Virus record (IMG/VR): IMGVR_UViG_3300040815_002027
Length of the DNA: 64,000 bases
Reading direction: 5' to 3' (one strand)
DNA from: a virus
Both the position numbers and the translations under genes were made by a program. The notes below the pieces were generated by a model that searched no databases, was not told the origin of the DNA, and saw nothing but the letters and a program-made list of their open reading frames with translations. Below, one piece after another: positions 1-64,000 of this stretch (position 1 is its first letter; every line of letters begins with the position of its first letter).

Positions 1-974
1 GTACTACGGATACAGATACAAATAACTACGTCTGCAATGCTTCTTTTAATACAAGTAATGGAGAGTTAACTTTAAACAGGATATTAGGAGGAAGTGTTAC
101 AGTAGACTTAGATGGTAGGTACTGTACAACAGTTCCTACTGTGAACGATCCTACAATAAGCGTAACAGGTTTAGATGGTGTGTGTGTCTATGGGGACAAT
201 TCCTTTACTTTAAACCAATCAACACCTGGATGTGTAACTATATGTTCTGTAGACAGTCTTTGTTCTGTTACTGTGAGAGGGTCAACTACAGCTCAAACGG
301 TTGCTTTCCAAAACTGTGCGTATATTTTTTGCTCTACAGCATTAAACTCTAATATACTACCTCCATCTTCTTTAGGTGTAGGTTTAGTAGGTCCTTTTTA
401 TGCGTGCAATCTAACCGCAGAGCAGTCTCCTACTCATATATTAGCTATAAATAACCCTACAGGAACTTATCAAGGAGGTAGTGCAGAAGTTGTATATACA
501 TCTTTAGATCAATTAAATGCTCAAATATCTGGGAGTATACAGACAAGTCTTGGTACTGATCCTGGAACTTTAGATACTACTACTACAAATATTATATCGG
601 ATGGGGTTCATTGTCATGCTATAACTACAACTCAAACAGATACTGCTTCGACTATAGTTCAAACTAATGCTTGTGGAGAAATAACTGCTGCTAACTTTAT
701 AACAACCTCTGATAAGAGATTAAAGAAAGATATAGAGCCTATAAAAAGTGGGCTAGATGTACTACAAAAATTTAACTCATATACTTATCTAAAAAAAGGT
801 ATATGTGACGCTGGTTTTATAGCACAAGAGGTGTGTTCGGTATTACCTTATTCTGTACAGGAAGATAGTGAAGGTTTTTTAACTATAAAAGAAAATCATA
901 TATTAGCTCACATGCATAAGGCTATACTTGAACTAAATAATAAATTAAATTGTTTGGAAACTAAATTAGGTTAA
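1..974 (+). CDS. Tail fibre/spike protein, 5'-truncated by the window, with C-terminal peptidase S74 intramolecular chaperone; Cys-speckled
   Basis: Frame is open from base 3 (TTDTDTNNYVCNASFNTSNGELTLNR...), so the true start lies upstream of the window; C-terminal TSDKRLKKDIEPI...GFIAQEV is the S74 signature. Confidence 0.8.
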   Translation, partial: TTDTDTNNYVCNASFNTSNGELTLNRILGGSVTVDLDGRYCTTVPTVNDPTISVTGLDGVCVYGDNSFTLNQSTPGCVTICSVDSLCSVTVRGSTTAQTVAFQNCAYIFCSTALNSNILPPSSLGVGLVGPFYACNLTAEQSPTHILAINNPTGTYQGGSAEVVYTSLDQLNAQISGSIQTSLGTDPGTLDTTTTNIISDGVHCHAITTTQTDTASTIVQTNACGEITAANFITTSDKRLKKDIEPIKSGLDVLQKFNSYTYLKKGICDAGFIAQEVCSVLPYSVQEDSEGFLTIKENHILAHMHKAILELNNKLNCLETKLG

Positions 975-976
975 CA

Positions 977-2365
977 ATGCCCGTCCCTACTTCTGGTGAT
1001 TTTAAAATGTTTGATCCTAATGCTAATGATCCAGAGAGCATTGAAGGTGCTATTAATTCGCATGGTGGAGATACAAGTACATCAGATAGTTTTACAGACC
1101 TAATTTCTGTTTCTGTTGCTTCTTATTATGATCCTGTATATGCAGGTACTATAAATACTCCTTCTACTGATGTATCTGCTTCTGAACAGTTTAGAAATTA
1201 TCCTAATATATGCAAATGGGTAAGCTTATACAAGCTAAACAGTACTGACTGTACTTTGGATACCTCTATTCTTTATGTTGATTTTTCTGTTTGTTCTGGT
1301 AGTTTGAATCCCTATACTGTTGGAGATGTGTGGGGAGATGGTGCTTTTTGCTATGAGATACAGTCATTTGGCAGTCCTCCTGCCCCTAGATTCTTTTCTA
1401 CACCTACTAATATAGAGTTAGAGCCTATGACTCCATACGGTAGCTGTGAGGAGTGCTATGGTATAACTACAACTACTACGACAACATCTGCACCTACTAC
1501 AACTACTACGACTACCACCACAACTTGTACACCAGCAGGAACTCCTCTAGGCACGAGGAGCGAGTGTGTAGGTTTTGATGAGTATGTTTATAACGTATAT
1601 GCTGACGGGAACTGTGGAACTTATGAAGTTTACTCATATACTATACCAAATAGTACTAATTGTGGGTATACTACCACTACTACTACTACAACTACTACGA
1701 CAACAATAGCGCCTTTCAAAATATACTACAGACTATTAAGATACTTCTCAGATTGTTCAAATGATATAATACTAAGACAAGGGTACAGATGGAATTACGA
1801 GACACAGCCATCTATAAATGATTATGTGACTTTAGGAGATGGGTATTGCTACAGAATAACATCAGGAACTCCTGTAGGTACAGATCTAGGACAAATACAA
1901 TCTACTTTCTATAGTGATTGCTTTACTTGTTACGGAATAACTACTACTACGACAACAGACGCACCTACAACTACTACAACTACTACGACTACTACGACAA
2001 CAGACGCACCTACAACTACTACAACTACTACGACAACAGACGCACCTACAACTACTACAACTACTACGACTACTACGACTACAGCTGCACCTACAACTAC
2101 GACTACTACGACTACAGCTGCACCTACAACTTATAAGTACCTTATAGGAAGATGTACCTTGTTAGATCAGCAAAGAGTAGTAGAATCTACAGTGCTTCTA
2201 ACTCCTAGCCCGACAGGAGACGGATCTTCTGTTACAATCGTTGGAGGAGGTTCTCAATGCTGGGCAGTATTAAGCACAAGTACAGGCACTGCTACAGAAA
2301 TAGTAGATCAGGTATTCAGTTCATGTGCTATTTGCGAAGGTGGAGGCGAAGGTGGAGGCACTTAA
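977..2365 (+). CDS. Mucin-like Thr-rich/Cys-module protein, probably a virion appendage
   Basis: Long poly-Thr tracts (TTTTTTDAP/TTTAAP) separate Cys modules ending in CxxC; directly follows a fibre gene. Confidence 0.65.
   Translation: MPVPTSGDFKMFDPNANDPESIEGAINSHGGDTSTSDSFTDLISVSVASYYDPVYAGTINTPSTDVSASEQFRNYPNICKWVSLYKLNSTDCTLDTSILYVDFSVCSGSLNPYTVGDVWGDGAFCYEIQSFGSPPAPRFFSTPTNIELEPMTPYGSCEECYGITTTTTTTSAPTTTTTTTTTTCTPAGTPLGTRSECVGFDEYVYNVYADGNCGTYEVYSYTIPNSTNCGYTTTTTTTTTTTTIAPFKIYYRLLRYFSDCSNDIILRQGYRWNYETQPSINDYVTLGDGYCYRITSGTPVGTDLGQIQSTFYSDCFTCYGITTTTTTDAPTTTTTTTTTTTTDAPTTTTTTTTTDAPTTTTTTTTTTTTAAPTTTTTTTTAAPTTYKYLIGRCTLLDQQRVVESTVLLTPSPTGDGSSVTIVGGGSQCWAVLSTSTGTATEIVDQVFSSCAICEGGGEGGGT
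1940..2131 (+). repeat. Coding tandem repeat (Thr codon runs with DAP/AAP units)
   Basis: Three ACAGACGCACCTACAACTACT units and two ACAGCTGCACCTACAACT units separated by variable ACN runs. Confidence 0.9.
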
Positions 2366-2380
2366 TTTAAAATAAAGATT

Positions 2381-3301
2381 ATGATCAGGTTTATAATGGC
2401 GCAGCCCGCAATAAAATACTACTCATGGCAAGTAGAAGTTTTATTGAATAATATGATAGAGATAGGGATAAACCTAAATTACGTTGATGTTGTATGTTAT
2501 GTAGAAGATACTATACCTAAAGAATGGGATAAATTAAGACATGGTTATGCTGCAAGATTCTTCTTTTATAAAGATACTAGAGAGACCAAAAACTATATAA
2601 GCAGTATCAGGCCTAATATCTTAAAACAGCATTGGGAAAATCACCCGTATCTGGAAAACGAAGTGATTTTTTACCACGATTGCGACATAATCTTTACAAG
2701 ACCTCTTGATTTAGACAAGTACAAAAAGGACGATACCTGGTACGGTAGTGATACTAAATGGTACATAAGTTATGACTACATTATAGGAAAAGGAAATGAT
2801 ATCTTTAACAAAATGATAGATATTATAGACATTGATCCAGACATTATTATAAAAAATAATGATAACAGTATAGGCGCACAATATATTATGAAGAATGTAG
2901 ACAGGGAGTATTGGGAAGATGTAGAAAAAGACTCCGAAAATCTGTTTGTAGAGGTAACAAGTTTAAACAGTGAAAAGAAAAAAAAGGATCCAGATTATCA
3001 CGAGATACAAATATGGTGTGCAGATATGTGGGCAGTTTTATGGAACGCTTGGAAAAGAGGCTATATTACTAGATGTGATCCAGATTTAGATTTTAGTTGG
3101 GGGACATCAACAGAAGAAGACTATTATAAATACAATATAATGCATAATGCGGGGGTTACTGATGATAAAGGGGGTCTATTTTTTAAAGCAAAGTTTACAA
3201 ATAAATTTCCATACAATTTAAACTTGTCTATACGAAATAACACTGCGTCAAAAAAGTATTATGAGTGGGTGCAGAAAATAGAGAAAAAAACAGTTTTATA
3301 A
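2381..3301 (+). CDS. GT-A glycosyltransferase resembling plant HPAT/SERGT1 (GT95/GT96) protein O-glycosyltransferases
   Basis: Motifs YYSWQVEV, YISSIRP, IFYHDCDIIFTRPL (DxD) and WCADMWA occur in the same order as HPAT/SERGT blocks. Confidence 0.65.
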   Translation: MIRFIMAQPAIKYYSWQVEVLLNNMIEIGINLNYVDVVCYVEDTIPKEWDKLRHGYAARFFFYKDTRETKNYISSIRPNILKQHWENHPYLENEVIFYHDCDIIFTRPLDLDKYKKDDTWYGSDTKWYISYDYIIGKGNDIFNKMIDIIDIDPDIIIKNNDNSIGAQYIMKNVDREYWEDVEKDSENLFVEVTSLNSEKKKKDPDYHEIQIWCADMWAVLWNAWKRGYITRCDPDLDFSWGTSTEEDYYKYNIMHNAGVTDDKGGLFFKAKFTNKFPYNLNLSIRNNTASKKYYEWVQKIEKKTVL

Positions 3302-3327
3302 AATATTAAGTAATATTATAGATATCT

Positions 3328-3969
3328 TTGTGGATGTTAAAAAATATACATCAAATATGGTTAGGTAATAAAAGAATACCTAAACACATAAAAGAATATA
3401 TGCAAGAAATAGAAAAAGAGCATAAAGAATACAATTACTTTTTTTGGAATGATAGTAATATACCTGATATGCCTAAAATTTTAAGATCAGTATTTGATTC
3501 TTTAGACCATCCTGCGATGAAAAGTGATTTACTAAGAGTGTACGTTCTTTATCTGCATGGCGGTATTTATTTAGATGTTGATTACAAATTATTAGCAAAT
3601 ATAGATAATCTTAAGTTAGATAGTAAAGATGACTATATAGTATATCAGAAAAAATCCAAAGTAGAAGACTTTAATTCATGTCTCTATATTTCAAACAAGA
3701 AAGGTAAGTTTGTATCATATATGTTAAAAACAATTAATGAAAAAAAAATGTGGTTAGGACCTCATTGGTATGCAAAATGTATATATGATTATTTAGGGCT
3801 AGAGAAACATTGTGATTATAAAGATATTTTAAAAAAATGTGATGAAAATAATATAGGGTACATTGATTGGGACTATTTTGATAGTAACATTGCTAAACAT
3901 ACTTTTATGGCATCATGGTATCCAGATTCATTTTGGAAGAAAAAGTTTGATGAAGATAGTTATGAGTAA
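3328..3969 (+). CDS. GT32 (DXD, Och1-like) glycosyltransferase; real start may be ATG 3334
   Basis: KNIHQIWLG, SDLLRVYVLYLHGGIYLDVD, WLGP. Confidence 0.85.
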   Translation: MWMLKNIHQIWLGNKRIPKHIKEYMQEIEKEHKEYNYFFWNDSNIPDMPKILRSVFDSLDHPAMKSDLLRVYVLYLHGGIYLDVDYKLLANIDNLKLDSKDDYIVYQKKSKVEDFNSCLYISNKKGKFVSYMLKTINEKKMWLGPHWYAKCIYDYLGLEKHCDYKDILKKCDENNIGYIDWDYFDSNIAKHTFMASWYPDSFWKKKFDEDSYE

Positions 3970-3974
3970 TTTTG
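3967..3974 (+). promoter_or_regulatory. Bacteroidota-type -7 promoter element (TAnnTTTG)
   Basis: TAATTTTG(C) about 35 nt upstream of ATG 4009. Confidence 0.45.
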
Positions 3975-4008
3975 CGAATAGTGTACTTTAATAAAATAAA
4001 AACTATTT

Positions 4009-4599
4009 ATGGTAACATCTTATTTTTTTAAATCTAGACAAAGTAATTTTGGTAATTACTATTTTCTTAATGATGCCTTAACTAAGGACGAGATAGATAG
4101 CATACTAACTTCTGTAGAGTATATACCCTCTCAAGACGCTATTATAGATGATAGCAGTAGAGAAACTAATATAAGAACCTCTATTATTAAATGGATACCA
4201 AAAAACCAGGATTGGGAATGGTTGTATTATAGATTATTTGATATAATGAATATTGCAAATAATTCTATGTGGAATTTAGATATAACCACTATGTTTGATA
4301 TGATACAGTATACTGAGTACTACGCTACAGAAAACGGGCATTATGATTGGCATATGGATGTAGGATCTGGGGAGGCTTCTTATAGGAAAATTTCTATTTC
4401 TGTACAAATATGCGAGGCAGATGATTTTGAGGGAGGTGACTTACAGATGTGGTTAGGCGGTACAAGTTTTTTAACTATGCCTAAAGGTATAGGAAATGCT
4501 GCTGTTTTCCCTAGTTTTTTTATGCATAGAGTATCTCCTATCACCAGAGGAGTTAGAAAAAGTTTGGTAATGTGGGCGGGAGGAACTCCTTATAGATAA
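4009..4599 (+). CDS. 2OG-Fe(II) oxygenase (prolyl hydroxylase/PKHD-like)
   Basis: HYDWHMD (HxD), RKISISV, FEGGDL, FPSFFMHRVSPITRGVRKSLVMW. Confidence 0.9.
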   Translation: MVTSYFFKSRQSNFGNYYFLNDALTKDEIDSILTSVEYIPSQDAIIDDSSRETNIRTSIIKWIPKNQDWEWLYYRLFDIMNIANNSMWNLDITTMFDMIQYTEYYATENGHYDWHMDVGSGEASYRKISISVQICEADDFEGGDLQMWLGGTSFLTMPKGIGNAAVFPSFFMHRVSPITRGVRKSLVMWAGGTPYR

Positions 4600-5285: not shown

Positions 5286-5912
5286 ATGTCTAAGTTACAG
5301 AACATAAAAGCTGTCAAGGAGATGTTGGCAGGCACTCACCGTTTTCAAAGAAAAACAACGGTAGGATACGAAAAAAAACAAGATACTAAAACTAGAAAGG
5401 TAGGGGAGATATGGGAAGAGACTATGCCTAATGGAGATGTGGTAGAATGGGAGCAGAAACAGGGGTATAGAGTTAAGAGGAGAAAGATTACTAAAATACT
5501 GGATAAAGTTCGGGAGGAGTTAAACACTTATCCTAACTGTTACGATAACTGTGAAAAAAAGAAAACAGCTAAATATACTATACATGATAAAAAGATAAGA
5601 GACGTTCATGGTATGTGTTTAGATTGTTTAGCTAGGTATGAAACTTATCTTAAAGCTAATGGAGAGTTTAAGGAGTATGAGAGAAAGAGGCATTTAGAAT
5701 CGGCTACATCTTTTTTTAAGGATGCAGAAGTAGAAAAAGAGATTATAAAAAAAGCACTAGAGTCTATAGAATACGTAGAGGAAGACGGAAGTAAAGAGGT
5801 CTGGAAATCAGAAAATAAACAAGCTCTATTAGAAAAGATAGATAGAGACTTTGAGAAGTTAAAAAATGACATATTAGGTCCTTTACAAAAAGAAGAAGAT
5901 GCAAATAATTAA
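5286..5912 (+). CDS. Hypothetical protein with possible Zn site
   Basis: CYDNC and CLDC motifs; upstream of terminase. Confidence 0.5.
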   Translation: MSKLQNIKAVKEMLAGTHRFQRKTTVGYEKKQDTKTRKVGEIWEETMPNGDVVEWEQKQGYRVKRRKITKILDKVREELNTYPNCYDNCEKKKTAKYTIHDKKIRDVHGMCLDCLARYETYLKANGEFKEYERKRHLESATSFFKDAEVEKEIIKKALESIEYVEEDGSKEVWKSENKQALLEKIDRDFEKLKNDILGPLQKEEDANN

Positions 5913-11686: not shown

Positions 11687-13405
11687 ATGAAAGATTTATT
11701 AGTAGAATATATACCATTTAATATTTCTCCTAGTATAATACAGGAGAGTATTTCTATTAATGGCAAGATACTAGTCTCTGGAGTATTACAAAGAGCTGGA
11801 GCAAAGAATCAGAATGGTAGAGTTTACCCTAAAGATGTTTTACAAAGAGAAGCTGAAAAGTACAATCAGGAGTTTGTAGCTCAAAATAGAGCATTGGGTG
11901 AATTGGACCACCCAGAGTGCCTAACATCTTCAGCTGAATTAATGACAACAGATGGATGGAAGTATCTTAAAGATTTGTCTGGTTCTGAAAAAGTTTTTAC
12001 TTTAAATAGATTTACTAATGAAATAGAAGTAAAGTCTATAAATAAAGTAATAAATGAGCCGTATAAAGGTAAGATGGTGGTAATAAAAGGTAAAAACATT
12101 AATACGACTGTAACTCCTAATCATAAATTTATAGTCACAGATAGAAATGGTGTGAACACTTTTATTACTGCACAAGAAATATTAGATTTATCTAAAAAAA
12201 TAAAGGTATCTCATTTAGCTATACCTAAAACAGGTATTTGGAGAAAAGATGCTTATGAAGATTCTTTTACTATAGATCCTGTAGAAACTAATAAAAGGTC
12301 TTCTAAGAAAAGATCTGAAGAGCAATCTAAACCTTTAGTTCTGAACACTAAAGCTTTTTTCGCCTTTTTGGGATTCTATTTTGCTGAAGGAGGTGTGGAT
12401 AAATCAGGGAGATCTAATTCTATAACTTTTACTCAAAACAAAGGAGAAGTTTTAGATGAGTTTAAGTCTATACTAAAAGAATTAAGTGATGAACTACATT
12501 GGAAAGAGTATCCCAAGTCTTTGAAAAGCGTTATGTTAAAAGTATCTGATCAGAGATTGCATACTTTTTTAAAAGATTTTGGGAATGTGTATACTAAAAG
12601 AATACCTGAATTTATAAAAGATAGCCATCCAGAATTATTAGATATTTTCTTAGAGTGGTATATAAAAGGAGATGGTACTATAGTTAGGAGTAATGGGTAT
12701 GATAGGTGTTCTGTTTTTACTGTTTCAAAAGGTATGATAGAAGACTTAAATGAGATATTAATTAAAGTAGGATCTTCTGGGGTTATAAAAGAGCAAGTGT
12801 CTAAAAAAGATTATAATTTTGCTGGAAGAGTGATACAACATAAAAATAAAAAGACGCTATATAGGCTTTGGTTTGAGAAGTCTAAATACATTCATTTAGA
12901 TTTTAGATTTATAGATGTTGAAGAAGTAGATTACGAGGGTAATGTTTATTGCATAAATACAGATAATGAAACTTTTTACTGTAGAGATAATAAAAAAAGT
13001 TTTTGGAGTGGTAATTCATCTGTAGTTAATTTAGCAAATGCTTCCCATAATGTTATAAAAATGTGGTGGGAAGGAGATGATCTTATGGGTAAGGTAGAGG
13101 TACTCCCTACACCTTCTGGTAATATTCTAAAATCATTACTAGAGTCTGGAGTTACTTTGGGTATTAGTTCTAGAGGAGTAGGTTCTGTAAAAGAAGTATT
13201 TACAGAAGATAGGCAGAAGTATTTGCAAGTACAAGAAGATTTCGAATTAGTATGTTTTGACTTTGTTTCTAACCCTTCGACTCATGGAGCATTTATGAAT
13301 CCTGTTAGAGAAAGTGTGGGAGATGCAAACAACAAGACAGCAAAAATAAATAAACTAATCACTGATATAATATGTGATATAGGGGAATATTGTCCCTGTA
13401 ACTAA
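11687..13405 (+). CDS. Prohead core protease (T4 gp21-like) containing an intein
   Basis: NQNGRVYP, ALGELDHP, LGISSRGVGS, FDFVSNPST. Confidence 0.93.
   Translation: MKDLLVEYIPFNISPSIIQESISINGKILVSGVLQRAGAKNQNGRVYPKDVLQREAEKYNQEFVAQNRALGELDHPECLTSSAELMTTDGWKYLKDLSGSEKVFTLNRFTNEIEVKSINKVINEPYKGKMVVIKGKNINTTVTPNHKFIVTDRNGVNTFITAQEILDLSKKIKVSHLAIPKTGIWRKDAYEDSFTIDPVETNKRSSKKRSEEQSKPLVLNTKAFFAFLGFYFAEGGVDKSGRSNSITFTQNKGEVLDEFKSILKELSDELHWKEYPKSLKSVMLKVSDQRLHTFLKDFGNVYTKRIPEFIKDSHPELLDIFLEWYIKGDGTIVRSNGYDRCSVFTVSKGMIEDLNEILIKVGSSGVIKEQVSKKDYNFAGRVIQHKNKKTLYRLWFEKSKYIHLDFRFIDVEEVDYEGNVYCINTDNETFYCRDNKKSFWSGNSSVVNLANASHNVIKMWWEGDDLMGKVEVLPTPSGNILKSLLESGVTLGISSRGVGSVKEVFTEDRQKYLQVQEDFELVCFDFVSNPSTHGAFMNPVRESVGDANNKTAKINKLITDIICDIGEYCPCN
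11918..13015 (+). mobile_element. Intein (366 aa) with LAGLIDADG homing endonuclease in the prohead protease
   Basis: HPE|CLTSSAE ... VTPNHKF (block B) ... FLGFYFAEG, WYIKGDG ... VYCI ... WSGN|SS. Confidence 0.92.
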
Positions 13406-16217: not shown

Positions 16218-16874
16218 ATGGCAGAAAACATCGAGAAGAAAGCACCTAAGAGTAGTGTAAAGTTTTCAATATCTTTATCTGAAGAGCAGAAGTTAGCGAA
16301 GGAACAGATACTAAAACACCCTTATAATTTTATCTTTGGAGAAGCAGGAACTGGTAAGACTCTACTGAGTATACAGATTGCTTTGGATAAGTACTTTAAA
16401 AGGGAGATAAATAGGATAGTCATTACTAGACCTACAGTATCTTCTGAGAATATTGGGTTTTTACCTGGAAGTATTCAGGAGAAAATGGAGCCTTGGTTAA
16501 TACCTATAATGGACAACATAAGAAAGGTTTATTCAAAAGATAACATAATAGAGAAAATGTTTGAAGATGGTGCTATAGAGATAGTATCTTTGTCTCACTT
16601 TAGAGGTCTTACTTTTGACAATGCTGTTTGTATTGTTGATGAGTGTCAAAACCTTACTGTAGAGCAAACTGCTATGTGTATAGGTAGATTAGGTAAAGAC
16701 AGTCAAATGATGTTTTGCGGAGATTATAGACAGGTGGATTTAAAGTATAATGAAGATAGTGGACTATCAAAAATAAAGAACTTAGAGAATAGTTCTTATG
16801 TTTATATTGTAGAATTATTAGAAAACCATAGACACCCAGCTTTAAAAGAAGTTTTAAGATTATATTATTCATAA
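16218..16874 (+). CDS. phoH: PhoH-family ATPase
   Basis: GEAGTGKT, ITRP, GFLPG, FRGLTF, IVDECQN, GDYRQVD, NHRH. Confidence 0.95.
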   Translation: MAENIEKKAPKSSVKFSISLSEEQKLAKEQILKHPYNFIFGEAGTGKTLLSIQIALDKYFKREINRIVITRPTVSSENIGFLPGSIQEKMEPWLIPIMDNIRKVYSKDNIIEKMFEDGAIEIVSLSHFRGLTFDNAVCIVDECQNLTVEQTAMCIGRLGKDSQMMFCGDYRQVDLKYNEDSGLSKIKNLENSSYVYIVELLENHRHPALKEVLRLYYS

Positions 16875-16889
16875 ATTAAATTCGTTATT

Positions 16890-17864
16890 ATGGAGTTACC
16901 AGGAGATCCATTATTTTTAGAGGAGCATGAAGAAGTGGATACAGTTTTTACTGATTTTGCATATACCGAAAAATATGTAATTGTACATATAGAGGGAGGT
17001 TTAGGGAAACACATAGCAGCTACGGCAGTTTTAAAGGCTGTAAAAAAGAAGTATAGCGATAGAAAAATTATTGTAGTATGTGGTTATCCAGAGGTGTTCC
17101 TATGGAACCCTGATTGTTGGAGGGTGTATGGCTTAGGAAATACCCCCTATTTTTATGATGATTATGTAAGAGGTAAGGATACTATTATCTTAAAAAATGA
17201 TCCTTATGCTACTACTGACCATATTCATCAAAGGAGACATCTTATAGAAAGTTGGTGCGAGGCCTTTGGATTAGAGTATGATAATGAACTTCCTAACTTA
17301 TATACTCCTTATAGAATGGCAGAGTTAGTTATACAAAAATACTCTAATAGAAATAAGCCTATTCTTCTTTTACATACAAATGGAGGTCCTTACAACGCTG
17401 ATAATAACTATGACGTTAATCAACTAGTAAGTTGGTCTAGAGATATGCCTTTGCCTATAGCTGAAGGTATAGTTAAACATTTCTCTAAAACACATCACAT
17501 TATTCAAATTTGTAAGAGTAAAGAGAATAGGATTCCTGGAGTAGAGCATATAGTAGGTCCTCAATACAATTTAGAGCTAATATCTTTACTTAGGATAGCT
17601 GATAAGAGGATTTTAATAGACTCATGTCTACAGCATGCAGCAGCTGCCTTTAGACTTCCTTCTACAGTATTGTGGAATGGAACATCTCCTACGGTTTTTG
17701 GATATAGCCTACACAATAATATCACTCCTAAAAGGGAGTATATGGAAGGATTTAAGAATATAAAAGCTTACTTATATGACTATGAGCTTTGGGGAGACCC
17801 AATTCAGTGTCCTTATGATACTAATGACATTTATGATTTAGAAACAATAGTAAAAACAACTTAA
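16890..17864 (+). CDS. GT9-like (heptosyltransferase-fold) glycosyltransferase, paralogue 1
   Basis: HIEGGLGKHIAATA at the N-terminus; LIDSCLQHAAAAFRLPSTVLW matches the GT9 D-S/T-x-x-x-H-x-A-A motif. Confidence 0.75.
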   Translation: MELPGDPLFLEEHEEVDTVFTDFAYTEKYVIVHIEGGLGKHIAATAVLKAVKKKYSDRKIIVVCGYPEVFLWNPDCWRVYGLGNTPYFYDDYVRGKDTIILKNDPYATTDHIHQRRHLIESWCEAFGLEYDNELPNLYTPYRMAELVIQKYSNRNKPILLLHTNGGPYNADNNYDVNQLVSWSRDMPLPIAEGIVKHFSKTHHIIQICKSKENRIPGVEHIVGPQYNLELISLLRIADKRILIDSCLQHAAAAFRLPSTVLWNGTSPTVFGYSLHNNITPKREYMEGFKNIKAYLYDYELWGDPIQCPYDTNDIYDLETIVKTT

Positions 17865-30348: not shown

Positions 30349-31263
30349 ATGAGTTTTGACAGTCAAGAAAAGTTTGTAATTTTCCACATTGCAGGTGGAG
30401 TAGGTAAACATATTGCAGCAACAGCTGTGTTAGAAGGTATTAATGATAAATACCCAGACAGAAAACTAATTGTAGTATGTGCTTGGACAGAAGTATTTGA
30501 ATTTCATCCATTAGTAGATAGAGTTTATCAGTTAGGTAATACCGATTACTTTTATCAAGATTATATTGAAGGTAAAGATGTTGTAATACTTATGCACGAC
30601 CCTTATCATGTTACAGGACATATAAAACAGGAACAGCACTTGATTAAAAGTTGGTATGAATGTTTAAATCTTGACTATAATAACCAACTACCTAAGTTGT
30701 ACAGTTCTTATAGAATAAGAGAAATTGTATTGCAGAAGTTTAGAAGAAACAAGCCTATTATGCTTATTCACAGTAATGGTGGTATGATACCTAATGATAA
30801 TGAAGTTAATCCTTACAACATTAAAAGTTGGGCAAGAGATATGCCTTTAAGTCTTGTACAGAAATTAGTAGATAAATATAAAGATACATATCATATTATG
30901 CAGGTTTGTAAGCATAAGAATAACTTAGTACAGGGTGCAGAGTATGTACAAACACACTCTTTATTAGAGTTGTTTACTTTGTTAAGATTGACTACTAAAA
31001 GAATTTTAATAGACAGCTCTTTGCAACATGCAGCAGCTGCTTATCAGTTACCTTCTGTTGTTTTATGGAATACAACATCACCTAATGTATATAGCTATGA
31101 TATACATAAGAATGTTTTATCTAATAAAGAAAAACTAACAGCAAAAAATAGAACAACCTATTTCGAAGAGTATGCAATAGATGGCAACCCTTTACAATGT
31201 CCTTATGAAGATGAGGATATATTTGATTTTGAAGAAGTTACAGAACTCGTAGATAAATTATAA
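30349..31263 (+). CDS. GT9-like glycosyltransferase, paralogue 2
   Basis: HIAGGVGKHIAATA, LIDSSLQHAAAAYQLPSVVLW; collinear with the 16890 gene. Confidence 0.75.
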   Translation: MSFDSQEKFVIFHIAGGVGKHIAATAVLEGINDKYPDRKLIVVCAWTEVFEFHPLVDRVYQLGNTDYFYQDYIEGKDVVILMHDPYHVTGHIKQEQHLIKSWYECLNLDYNNQLPKLYSSYRIREIVLQKFRRNKPIMLIHSNGGMIPNDNEVNPYNIKSWARDMPLSLVQKLVDKYKDTYHIMQVCKHKNNLVQGAEYVQTHSLLELFTLLRLTTKRILIDSSLQHAAAAYQLPSVVLWNTTSPNVYSYDIHKNVLSNKEKLTAKNRTTYFEEYAIDGNPLQCPYEDEDIFDFEEVTELVDKL

Positions 31264-61789: not shown

Positions 61790-62341
61790 ATGGAGTTACC
61801 TAAGTTAGTAAAACCTAGACCCACTAAAAAGAAGATACTTCTATTATCAGATGACTTAAGACTACATTCTGGTGTAGGTACTATGAGTCGAGAGTTTGTT
61901 TTAGGCACTGCTGAACAATTTGATTGGTTTCAGTTAGGTGCAGCTATAAAACATCCTGACCAAGGTAAGATAATTGATGTATCTGAAGATGTTAATAAAG
62001 AGTTAGGCATCGACCATGCAGACGTTAAAGTAATGCCTTGGTCTGGATATGGAGACCCGCAAATACTAAGATATTTGTTAGAGACTGTAAAACCAGATGC
62101 TATACTTCATTTTACTGATCCAAGATTTTGGCAGTGGTTATATCACATGGAACATGAGATTAGACAGCAATGTCCTATAGTATATTATGCTATATGGGAT
62201 GATACTCCGTTCCCTAATTACAATTGGTTATCTTACGCATCTTGTGACATGATATTGGGGATTAGTAAGCAATCCCACAATATTCATAATAATGTTTTAA
62301 GAAACAATAACCAAAAAGTAATAGACTTAGATGAACAATAG
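61790..62341 (+). CDS. GT4-like glycosyltransferase, N-terminal domain
   Basis: KILLLSDD...SGVG, KPDAILHFTDP, SCDMILGISK. Confidence 0.75.
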   Translation: MELPKLVKPRPTKKKILLLSDDLRLHSGVGTMSREFVLGTAEQFDWFQLGAAIKHPDQGKIIDVSEDVNKELGIDHADVKVMPWSGYGDPQILRYLLETVKPDAILHFTDPRFWQWLYHMEHEIRQQCPIVYYAIWDDTPFPNYNWLSYASCDMILGISKQSHNIHNNVLRNNNQKVIDLDEQ

Positions 62342-63260
62342 AACTATTTACACAGCCTATGTCCCACATGGTATAAACGAAAATGCTTTTAGGCCTATCG
62401 TAGAAGGGGACAAAGATTACGAAGATTTTATTAAGTTTAAGAATGAGTTCCTTTCTAAACATGATTTGAACTTTATTGTATTCTGGAATAATAGGAACAT
62501 AAGAAGAAAGCAGCCTGGAGACGTTATCTTATCTTTCAGGCACTTTACAAACACTCTGAGTGAGGAACAGGCAAAGCATGTCGGTCTGTTTATGCACACT
62601 CAGGTCTCTGATGAGAATGGAACTAATTTAAAAGCAGTTAAAGAAGCAGTCTGCCCTGACTGTAATATTATTTTTTCTGATGCAAAGATTTCCTCTAAAG
62701 AGTTAAACTTTTTTTATAACCTATCAGATGTTACTTTAAATATAGCATCGAATGAAGGGTTCGGTTTAAGTGGGGCTGAGTCTATTATGGCAGGGACTCC
62801 TATCATAAATAATGTTACAGGAGGACTACAAGACCAGTGTAGGTTTGAGGACAGTGAAGGTAACTGGATAAACTTTGATTCTACTATAACTTCTAATCAT
62901 ACAGGACACTATACAAATCACGGGACTTGGGTAAAGCCTGTGTACCCTAGCAACAGATCTTTGCAAGGTTCTGTACCTACTCCTTATATATTTGATGATA
63001 GATGTAAGTTTGAGGATGTGTCAAAAGCTATAGGGTATTGGTATTATATAAAACCTGAAAAAAGAAAACAGCTAGGCCTTGAAGGAAGAAAGTGGGCGGT
63101 AAGTGAAGAATCTGGTATGTCATCTAAAGAGATGTGTAATAGATTTGTAAAACATATTAATTTTTTATTAGAGAACTGGACTCCTACTGAGAACTTTACG
63201 GTTACTAAGGTAGATAAATTTGAGAGTTCTTTTTCAGAAAATATAGGTATAACTTGGTAA
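62331..63260 (+). CDS. GT4-like glycosyltransferase, C-terminal domain
   Basis: YVPHGI, RNIRRK, NEGFGLSGAESIMAGTPII. Confidence 0.85.
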   Translation: MNNRTIYTAYVPHGINENAFRPIVEGDKDYEDFIKFKNEFLSKHDLNFIVFWNNRNIRRKQPGDVILSFRHFTNTLSEEQAKHVGLFMHTQVSDENGTNLKAVKEAVCPDCNIIFSDAKISSKELNFFYNLSDVTLNIASNEGFGLSGAESIMAGTPIINNVTGGLQDQCRFEDSEGNWINFDSTITSNHTGHYTNHGTWVKPVYPSNRSLQGSVPTPYIFDDRCKFEDVSKAIGYWYYIKPEKRKQLGLEGRKWAVSEESGMSSKEMCNRFVKHINFLLENWTPTENFTVTKVDKFESSFSENIGITW

Positions 63261-63262
63261 AT

Positions 63263-64000
63263 ATGAGTAAGAGAGTTTTATTGTACGCACCTGTTAAGAC
63301 AAGGTCTGGTTACGGAGACCACGCTAGAGACATTGCAAGATGTATTATATCCTATTCAGATTATGATTTAGAAATATTTCCTACTAATTGGGGAAATACT
63401 TCTTGGAATGGTTTAGACACTACTACTGAAGTTGGTAGAGCTATTGAGTCTCGTATTACTAAAAGACCTACACCCAATCCTGATATCTTTATACAATTGA
63501 CTATACCTAATGAGTTTTCTAGATTAGGTAAGTATAATATAGGTATGACAGCTGGTATAGAGACTGATCTATGTAAGCCAGAATGGATTGAGGGAGCTAA
63601 TAATATGGATATGCTTATAGGAGTCAGTGAACACTCTGTATCTGTTTTAAAGAACTCGAAATACGATAAACAAGATAAGACTACTAATCAGATAATAGGG
63701 TCAGTAGCCTTAAAAGAAAGTCTTAGAACGGAAGTTCTTTTTGAAGGTATAGACACTGATATATTTAAAAAGACTTCTAAAATAGACCAGGAAGTAAAAG
63801 ATAAGCTATCTTCTATAAAAGAAGATTTTTGTTTTTTATTCGTAGGACATTGGTTAGAAGGGGATTTAGGCCAAGATAGAAAAGATGTCGGGATGCTAGT
63901 AAAAACTTTCTGTGAAGCTTTTAAAAATAAACCTTCTAGAACAAGACCTGCTCTTATATTAAAAACTAGCGGATCTGGATTCTCAGTTAGCGATAGGTAC
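63263..64000 (+). CDS. GT4-like glycosyltransferase, 3'-truncated by the window
   Basis: Not in the ORF track; MSKRVLLYAPVKTRSGYGDHARDI..PNEF..TAGIETD..FLFVGHW..DRKDVG, open to the window end. Confidence 0.75.
   Translation, partial: MSKRVLLYAPVKTRSGYGDHARDIARCIISYSDYDLEIFPTNWGNTSWNGLDTTTEVGRAIESRITKRPTPNPDIFIQLTIPNEFSRLGKYNIGMTAGIETDLCKPEWIEGANNMDMLIGVSEHSVSVLKNSKYDKQDKTTNQIIGSVALKESLRTEVLFEGIDTDIFKKTSKIDQEVKDKLSSIKEDFCFLFVGHWLEGDLGQDRKDVGMLVKTFCEAFKNKPSRTRPALILKTSGSGFSVSDRY

Follow-up and report, generated by a model that had tools for sequence, protein, structure and literature searches.

A phage glycosyltransferase remotely related to plant HPAT and SGT1, and its likely action on poly-threonine tracts of virion proteins

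We analysed a 64,000-nucleotide stretch of viral DNA (the window) from the IMG/VR record IMGVR_UViG_3300040815_002027, which in whole is 102 kb long and about 56% complete. At positions 977–4599, four consecutive + strand open reading frames (ORFs) follow directly on a tail-fibre gene, in a gene order that is identical across independent assemblies, and both the ORF calls and the domain matches agree with the arrangement described in a first-pass annotation of this DNA, which had read the four genes as a glycosylation pathway resembling that of plant extensins. We focus here on the second gene, which encodes a glycosyltransferase (GT), and on its link to the poly-Thr tracts of the first. The features of the locus (aa, amino acids; 2OG, 2-oxoglutarate) are as follows:

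3..974, + strand: 3′ end of the tail-fibre gene, which begins upstream of the window (1376 aa at full length, from the genome)
977..2365, + strand: 462-aa poly-Thr protein, four small Cys-containing modules with poly-Thr linkers between them
1466..1525, + strand: Thr tract 1, residues 164–183, with 17 Thr and 1 Pro
1670..1705, + strand: Thr tract 2, residues 232–243, with 12 Thr and no Pro
1940..2116, + strand: Thr tract 3, residues 322–380, with 47 Thr and DAP/AAP punctuation
2381..3301, + strand: 306-aa GT-A glycosyltransferase, phrog_4417 (the "prophage pi2 protein 34" family)
3334..3969, + strand: 211-aa GT32-type DxD glycosyltransferase, from an ATG start (PF04488, E 5e-14)
4009..4599, + strand: 196-aa 2OG-Fe(II) oxygenase (PF13640, E 2.5e-10) with H115-x-D117, H173 and R183

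The 306-aa protein is predicted with high confidence to adopt a GT-A fold (pLDDT, the predicted local distance difference test, of 97), and it combines this fold with a DxD-type metal motif, D100-x-D102 (here D100-C-D102), which is invariant together with R77-P78, G165-A-Q167, D215-M216 and H255. Its catalytic domain starts at residue 2, and there is no N-terminal membrane anchor. A sequence search of the PDB gave no match, and the closest solved folds include glycogenin and LARGE1; an HPAT or SGT1 structure is absent from the fold matches, which neither supports nor excludes that family. At 90% identity the phage enzyme family falls into at least 2683 clusters, and one form of it carries an N-terminal Cys-rich (CxxC) extension of 80–110 aa (L192 1183–2445, from the metagenomic record G458, and also L047, L052 and L082).

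The similarity to GT95 and GT96 that had been proposed for this enzyme was borne out by profile comparison. Eukaryotic enzymes were drawn from metagenomes by the short motif W-x-x-E-M-Y-G-Y, and all of those tested (10/10) exceeded the cut-off of PF23452, the Pfam family for HPAT, with the hidden Markov model (HMM) matches sitting in the N-terminal half, apart from the motif used for selection; the motif itself was not found in viral contigs. Aligned with HHalign to a profile of 39 eukaryotic domains, the phage family gave a probability of 91.5% (E 8.7e-7) over 205 columns, and a second comparison with the eukaryotic profile gave 87% over 234 columns, where the E-values are those of a single pairwise comparison and most rows of the eukaryotic profile are algal SGT1-type sequences. 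Reversed or shuffled profiles reached at most 1.5%, and no profile of GT32, GT2 or another neighbour exceeded 2.8%. Six motifs are in register between the two profiles, the HPAT/SERGT-like motifs described in the first-pass annotation are real and colinear, and HPAT-bearing clusters (HPAT on 10% of members) are among the nearest named neighbours in the Atlas. On these comparisons we assign the 306-aa protein as a remote but specific homologue of HPAT (GT95) and SGT1 (GT96), at ~17% identity, and a member of neither. PF23452 searches of this genome, of 47 viral records and of 5 + 401 bacterial genomes were empty, and are uninformative because the controls were equally silent.

Thr makes up 115 residues (25%) of the 462-aa protein encoded immediately upstream, which also contains 18 Cys; the three tracts together hold 76 Thr and 5 Pro, and runs of at least five Thr occur in this ORF only in the whole 102-kb record. 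A DNA-slippage origin of the tracts was considered and rejected, since all four Thr codons are mixed within them and they are thus not a simple slippage repeat. The protein matches no family in Pfam, PHROG or NCBIfam, scanning its separate modules against PHROG was equally empty, its relatives with similar architecture are weak ones only (one Cys module is common to locus L033), and its single-sequence structural model is unusable (pLDDT 35). Its gene starts 2 nt past the stop codon of the 1376-aa fibre gene, whose product has PHROG tail-fibre matches and a C-terminal S74 intramolecular chaperone (PF13884, E 3.9e-10), and as judged by gene position only the protein is probably a fibre-associated, putative acceptor of the enzyme; a role as a gp38-like tip adhesin is only a guess. 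Because an S74 match is found in just 3/80 loci carrying the enzyme, fibre adjacency is not conserved, and the tail-fibre gene is context, outside the conserved pair of enzyme and Thr protein. The suggestion of an extensin-like substrate did not hold: the protein has no Ser-Pro4, its single PP (residue 134) lies outside the tracts, and the five Pro within them are isolated.

The association between enzyme and Thr tracts extends well beyond this locus, as the first-pass annotation had anticipated. In 80 viral loci, a run of at least five Thr is found in the gene directly upstream of the enzyme in 44 of 75 scorable cases, vs 0 of 72 for the gene directly downstream. Grouping the loci at 80% identity leaves 37 lineages, of which 33 carry a poly-Thr gene no more than 6 kb away; of the other four, two have their tracts in another part of the genome and two are short fragments. 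Similarly, six consecutive Thr codons are present in 43/47 enzyme-carrying records and in all 17 of the near-complete ones. Among 47 control records picked solely by capsid likeness to the phage in the window, 46 are without the enzyme and none of these 46 has a true Thr tract, as the three pattern matches obtained in this set are poly-Gly on the other strand. The complete genomes of the phages immuto and Mel-JY01, which are capsid relatives, have neither enzyme nor tract.

Cultured phages provide a more closely matched comparison. The enzyme family is encoded in 77 phage records (tblastn, E 0.01), with hosts including Lactobacillus, Enterococcus, Staphylococcus, Lactococcus, Clostridium, Chryseobacterium and others, and in all eight cultured phages inspected there is poly-Thr in the ORF just upstream of the enzyme. 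The tracts lie on annotated capsid and tail-tube proteins: Thr tails end both proteins in phiFL1A, 1706 and iLp84, and a Thr tail is found on the tail tube of VPE25, phiCTP1 and SA2. The matched control consisted of 33 phages related through one of two tail-tube proteins: all 12 that have the enzyme carry Thr tails on both tube and capsid, and in the 21 that lack it no poly-Thr ORF occurs in the locus. On the tube tree there are four changes of the joint trait, two of them forced by well-supported branches, and the tailed capsid and tube genes lie ~2 kb apart, with both tails gained or lost along with the enzyme. As the tails on both proteins track the enzyme, tag and enzyme travel as a pair, and the genes involved are not neighbours. 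We also note poly-Thr frames lying in another frame directly past the capsid or tube stop codon (L181 about 5750–5900 in VPE25, L184 5670–5933 in SA2), which look like programmed-frameshift extensions and in VPE25 are unannotated.

Chromosomal homologues of the enzyme (35–37% identity) occur in Pedobacter, Sphingobacterium and Dysgonomonas as N-terminal domains of ~500-aa proteins, in clusters that include a C39-type peptide exporter. These clusters resemble those for peptides made by the ribosome and modified after translation (RiPPs; L091 4712–10386 and L093 3942–10357, as well as L092 and L094–L096), and consist of a VKOR-like gene, one or more precursors, a TlpA-like oxidoreductase and the transferase, to which most add a C39 ABC exporter and its partner. 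The precursors in the two clusters inspected are Cys-rich with a double-Gly motif (L091 6506–6760; L093 3942–4169 and 6200–6505). This is a candidate for a new glycosylated-peptide pathway, and the RiPP-like context independently suggests a peptide acceptor for the enzyme family.

The genes downstream of the enzyme are far more variable. The GT32 of the window is a secure domain assignment (53.2 bits, against a curated cut-off of 23), and a GT32 lies behind the enzyme in 8/80 loci, such that it is an optional neighbour that could possibly act as an extending enzyme; a pattern scan for its relatives found none. The closest homologue of the 306-aa enzyme (87%) is followed by a methyltransferase, a GT32 and a GT2, and no oxygenase. 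The commonest downstream partner (49 loci) is instead a ~290-aa protein with an N-terminal part resembling a rhamnose-binding (SUEL) lectin, which is possibly a lectin-guided extending transferase. This partner is unannotated, for example at L002 6918–7787, where it matches PDB 5h4s (E 4e-10) and has a conserved EHDV motif. Further partners are GT2, GT6, GT25 and GT4 enzymes, methyltransferases and radical SAM proteins, and many carriers from Firmicutes have no second transferase beside the enzyme.

T4-like terminase, portal and capsid genes follow directly on the 977–4599 locus, and by capsid and terminase the nearest cultured relatives of this phage are Mel-JY01 (56–60%), deposited as a Microcystis phage, Flavobacterium phage immuto (50–52%) and Rhodothermus phage RM378; a Bacteroidota host is plausible. 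Promoter and terminator scans gave no signal above chance level. Elsewhere in the window, an intein with a LAGLIDADG endonuclease splits the prohead protease (11687–13405), a PhoH-like gene lies directly 3′ of the major capsid gene (16218–16874), and two more GT-B-like genes with weak GT9/heptosyltransferase matches lie within the structural module (16890–17864 and 30349–31263). Genes resembling glycosyltransferases and methyltransferases, among them a GT4-like gene (62331–63260), form a second cluster ~9 kb long, which occupies 62331–64000 and runs on beyond the window end; it could act on the virion glycan or on another target.

Taking these observations together, we consider it likely that the enzyme directly O-glycosylates Thr in tracts of virion proteins, with variable enzymes extending the product. 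The direct basis for this reading is the fold, the remote GT95/GT96 homology, the co-occurrence and co-loss with Thr tracts and the variability of the neighbours, and from it we infer catalysis on Thr, the donor sugar, a place for the 462-aa protein in the virion, the part played by the GT32 and the benefit to the phage. The enzyme would be a metal- and nucleotide-sugar-dependent peptide O-glycosyltransferase working in the host cytoplasm, where it would set the first sugar directly on Thr of poly-Thr tracts in the phage's own surface proteins, with the 462-aa protein behind the tail fibre as the presumed acceptor at this locus. The GT32 would be one of several interchangeable downstream enzymes and a possible glycan extender, and the oxygenase would merely ride along or, at most, help to tailor the sugar. 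Linkers or tails of virion proteins would in this way acquire a mucin-like coat of glycans, stiff and hydrated, which might serve in linker stiffening or protection, shielding, or adhesion.

Several points weigh against this interpretation. The 462-aa protein is without structural-protein annotation, and the capsid-likeness records are mostly fragments, with four near-complete. G458, a 56% complete capsid relative, has the enzyme, which in this record sits in a GT cluster, and no run of six Thr; around two more distant marine homologues, L088 and L089, 8 kb of flanking sequence hold no Thr tract; and in one clade of 60–66 kb genomes the enzyme lies in the DNA-metabolism region with the tracts elsewhere in the genome. 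In addition, neither the window enzyme nor 120 close homologues match PF23452, and the best score among ~240 more distant homologues (E 0.006) is below the cut-off, so that sugar and acceptor are not transferable from the plant enzymes.

The pathway originally proposed for this locus, in which the oxygenase would hydroxylate the prolines of AP motifs, the 306-aa enzyme would glycosylate the resulting hydroxyproline (Hyp) and the GT32 would extend it, draws on the homology of the enzyme to HPAT, on the complete HxD...H...R set of an oxygenase in a family (PF13640) that includes prolyl hydroxylases, and on the Pro found beside 495/570 Thr runs in aquatic loci. A second, different HxD...H...R protein (207 aa, no Pfam match) also lies directly after the enzyme at L004 6930–7553 and in six other loci. 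However, the window oxygenase is of the common aquatic-phage phrog_61/PKHD type, with the PKHD-type PiuC as its nearest structure, and its kind is common in cyanophages (353 records). Its family adjoins the enzyme in 2/80 loci, and PF13640 was found in 0/27 other carriers (8 cultured phages with complete genomes and 19 metagenomic genomes that are mostly complete), yet is present in Mel-JY01 and G493, which are relatives without the enzyme; the oxygenase is not part of the conserved system. The tail-tube tails of 1706, VPE25 and iLp84 contain no Pro, as is also the case for tract 2 of the window, and the host of one carrier is an anaerobic Clostridium. In plants the targets are Ser-Hyp4 or Hyp motifs, of which there are none here, and plant extensin glycosylation requires Hyp made beforehand (PMC8012813). 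As no conserved supplier of Hyp exists among the carriers, initiation on Hyp, and with it the four-gene extensin-like pathway, is very improbable, and oxygenases may be occasional glycan-tailoring extras.

Two further explanations accept or discount the tracts as substrate in different ways. The tracts could receive another mark, either a sugar-phosphate or other group, or a glycogenin-like priming of one terminal site for a polymer, in line with the presence of glycogenin and LARGE1 among the nearest solved folds and with the diversity of partners, from the GT-A-like lectin fusion to methyltransferases. We regard this as unlikely, as the only specific homologues, HPAT and SGT1, put a single sugar on a peptide hydroxyl (PMC8012813), and the many Firmicutes phages with no adjoining second transferase argue in the same direction. 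Alternatively, the enzyme could modify host envelope glycans or phage DNA, with the tracts being unmodified flexible linkers and the link reflecting shared cassette inheritance. GT clusters are frequent in aquatic phages, including the one from 62331 onwards here, DNA and host surfaces are known substrates for GTs of phages (PMC12619734, PMC12801897), and a few enzyme-positive records have no tract. This explanation is nevertheless improbable given that capsid and tube tails, on two separate genes, both follow the enzyme over the four tree changes, that the proteins bearing the tracts in phages of Firmicutes and in aquatic phages are unrelated, and that the linkage is directional.

Beyond direct Thr glycosylation in phages, a wider reading is possible, which we hold more tentatively: the enzymes may form a widespread prokaryotic and viral sister family of GT95/GT96 that acts on a portable poly-Thr tag of virion proteins in phages of both Firmicutes and aquatic bacteria, builds mucin-like virion coats with variable extenders, and was recruited as a RiPP transferase in Bacteroidota. 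If so, this would imply a prokaryotic origin for the starters of plant cell-wall protein glycosylation. A literature search limited to papers accessible without subscription gave no description of this enzyme family or of poly-Thr virion tags, and within that literature virion glycosylation is demonstrated for actinobacteriophages only. What the window locus contributes is a T4-like carrier from the aquatic phages whose tracts are internal, and a profile test of the plant homology; the evidence against a hydroxyproline step and the RiPP-like context of the bacterial homologues are also new here. Since carriers are cultured on the six host genera named above, the prediction is testable on existing stocks. 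If it is true, many dairy, therapeutic-candidate and aquatic phages would bear an unrecognised glycan coat that could alter adsorption, stability and recognition by antibodies, the HPAT/SGT1 enzymes, whose structures are unsolved, would gain a soluble single-domain relative, and the short tag and its enzyme would make a pair for cytoplasmic O-glycosylation in bacteria.

When set against known systems, the phage enzyme shares 8–13% identity with members of the GT8/GT24 clan (LgtC, glycogenin, Gat1, UGGT, WbbM), a sharing of fold that gives no specificity. Its Bacteroidota homologues recall glycocin (glycosylated RiPP) pathways in being flanked by a Cys-rich double-Gly precursor, an oxidoreductase of the TlpA type and an ABC exporter of the C39 type. 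Known glycocin transferases, however, are GT2 enzymes, and the window enzyme is viral and outside any RiPP-like cluster. In mycobacteriophages (Che8 and relatives; Freeman et al. 2023, as cited in PMC12619734 and PMC11256854), glycans are reported to be placed at the C-termini of capsid and tail-tube proteins, by transferases that are likewise phage-encoded and at the same positions as the Thr tails of Firmicutes phages. No Mycobacterium phage is among the 77 family-encoding records at tblastn E 0.01, a threshold that leaves room for very remote homology, and thus the mycobacteriophage enzyme differs from the family in the window; the systems described here also belong to other host phyla and include, as a putative acceptor, a multi-module, fibre-adjacent protein with internal tracts. 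Plant HPAT and SGT1 are type II Golgi membrane proteins (PMC8012813), unlike the phage enzyme, which at ~17% identity and with no PF23452 match is cytoplasmic and without an anchor, and is linked to poly-Thr rather than Ser-Hyp4 and to no conserved prolyl hydroxylase. What it has in common with HPAT (GT95) and SGT1 (GT96) is the GT-A fold, the six colinear motifs over 205–234 columns and, presumably, the role of starting peptide O-glycosylation on a tract of low complexity that is rich in hydroxyls.

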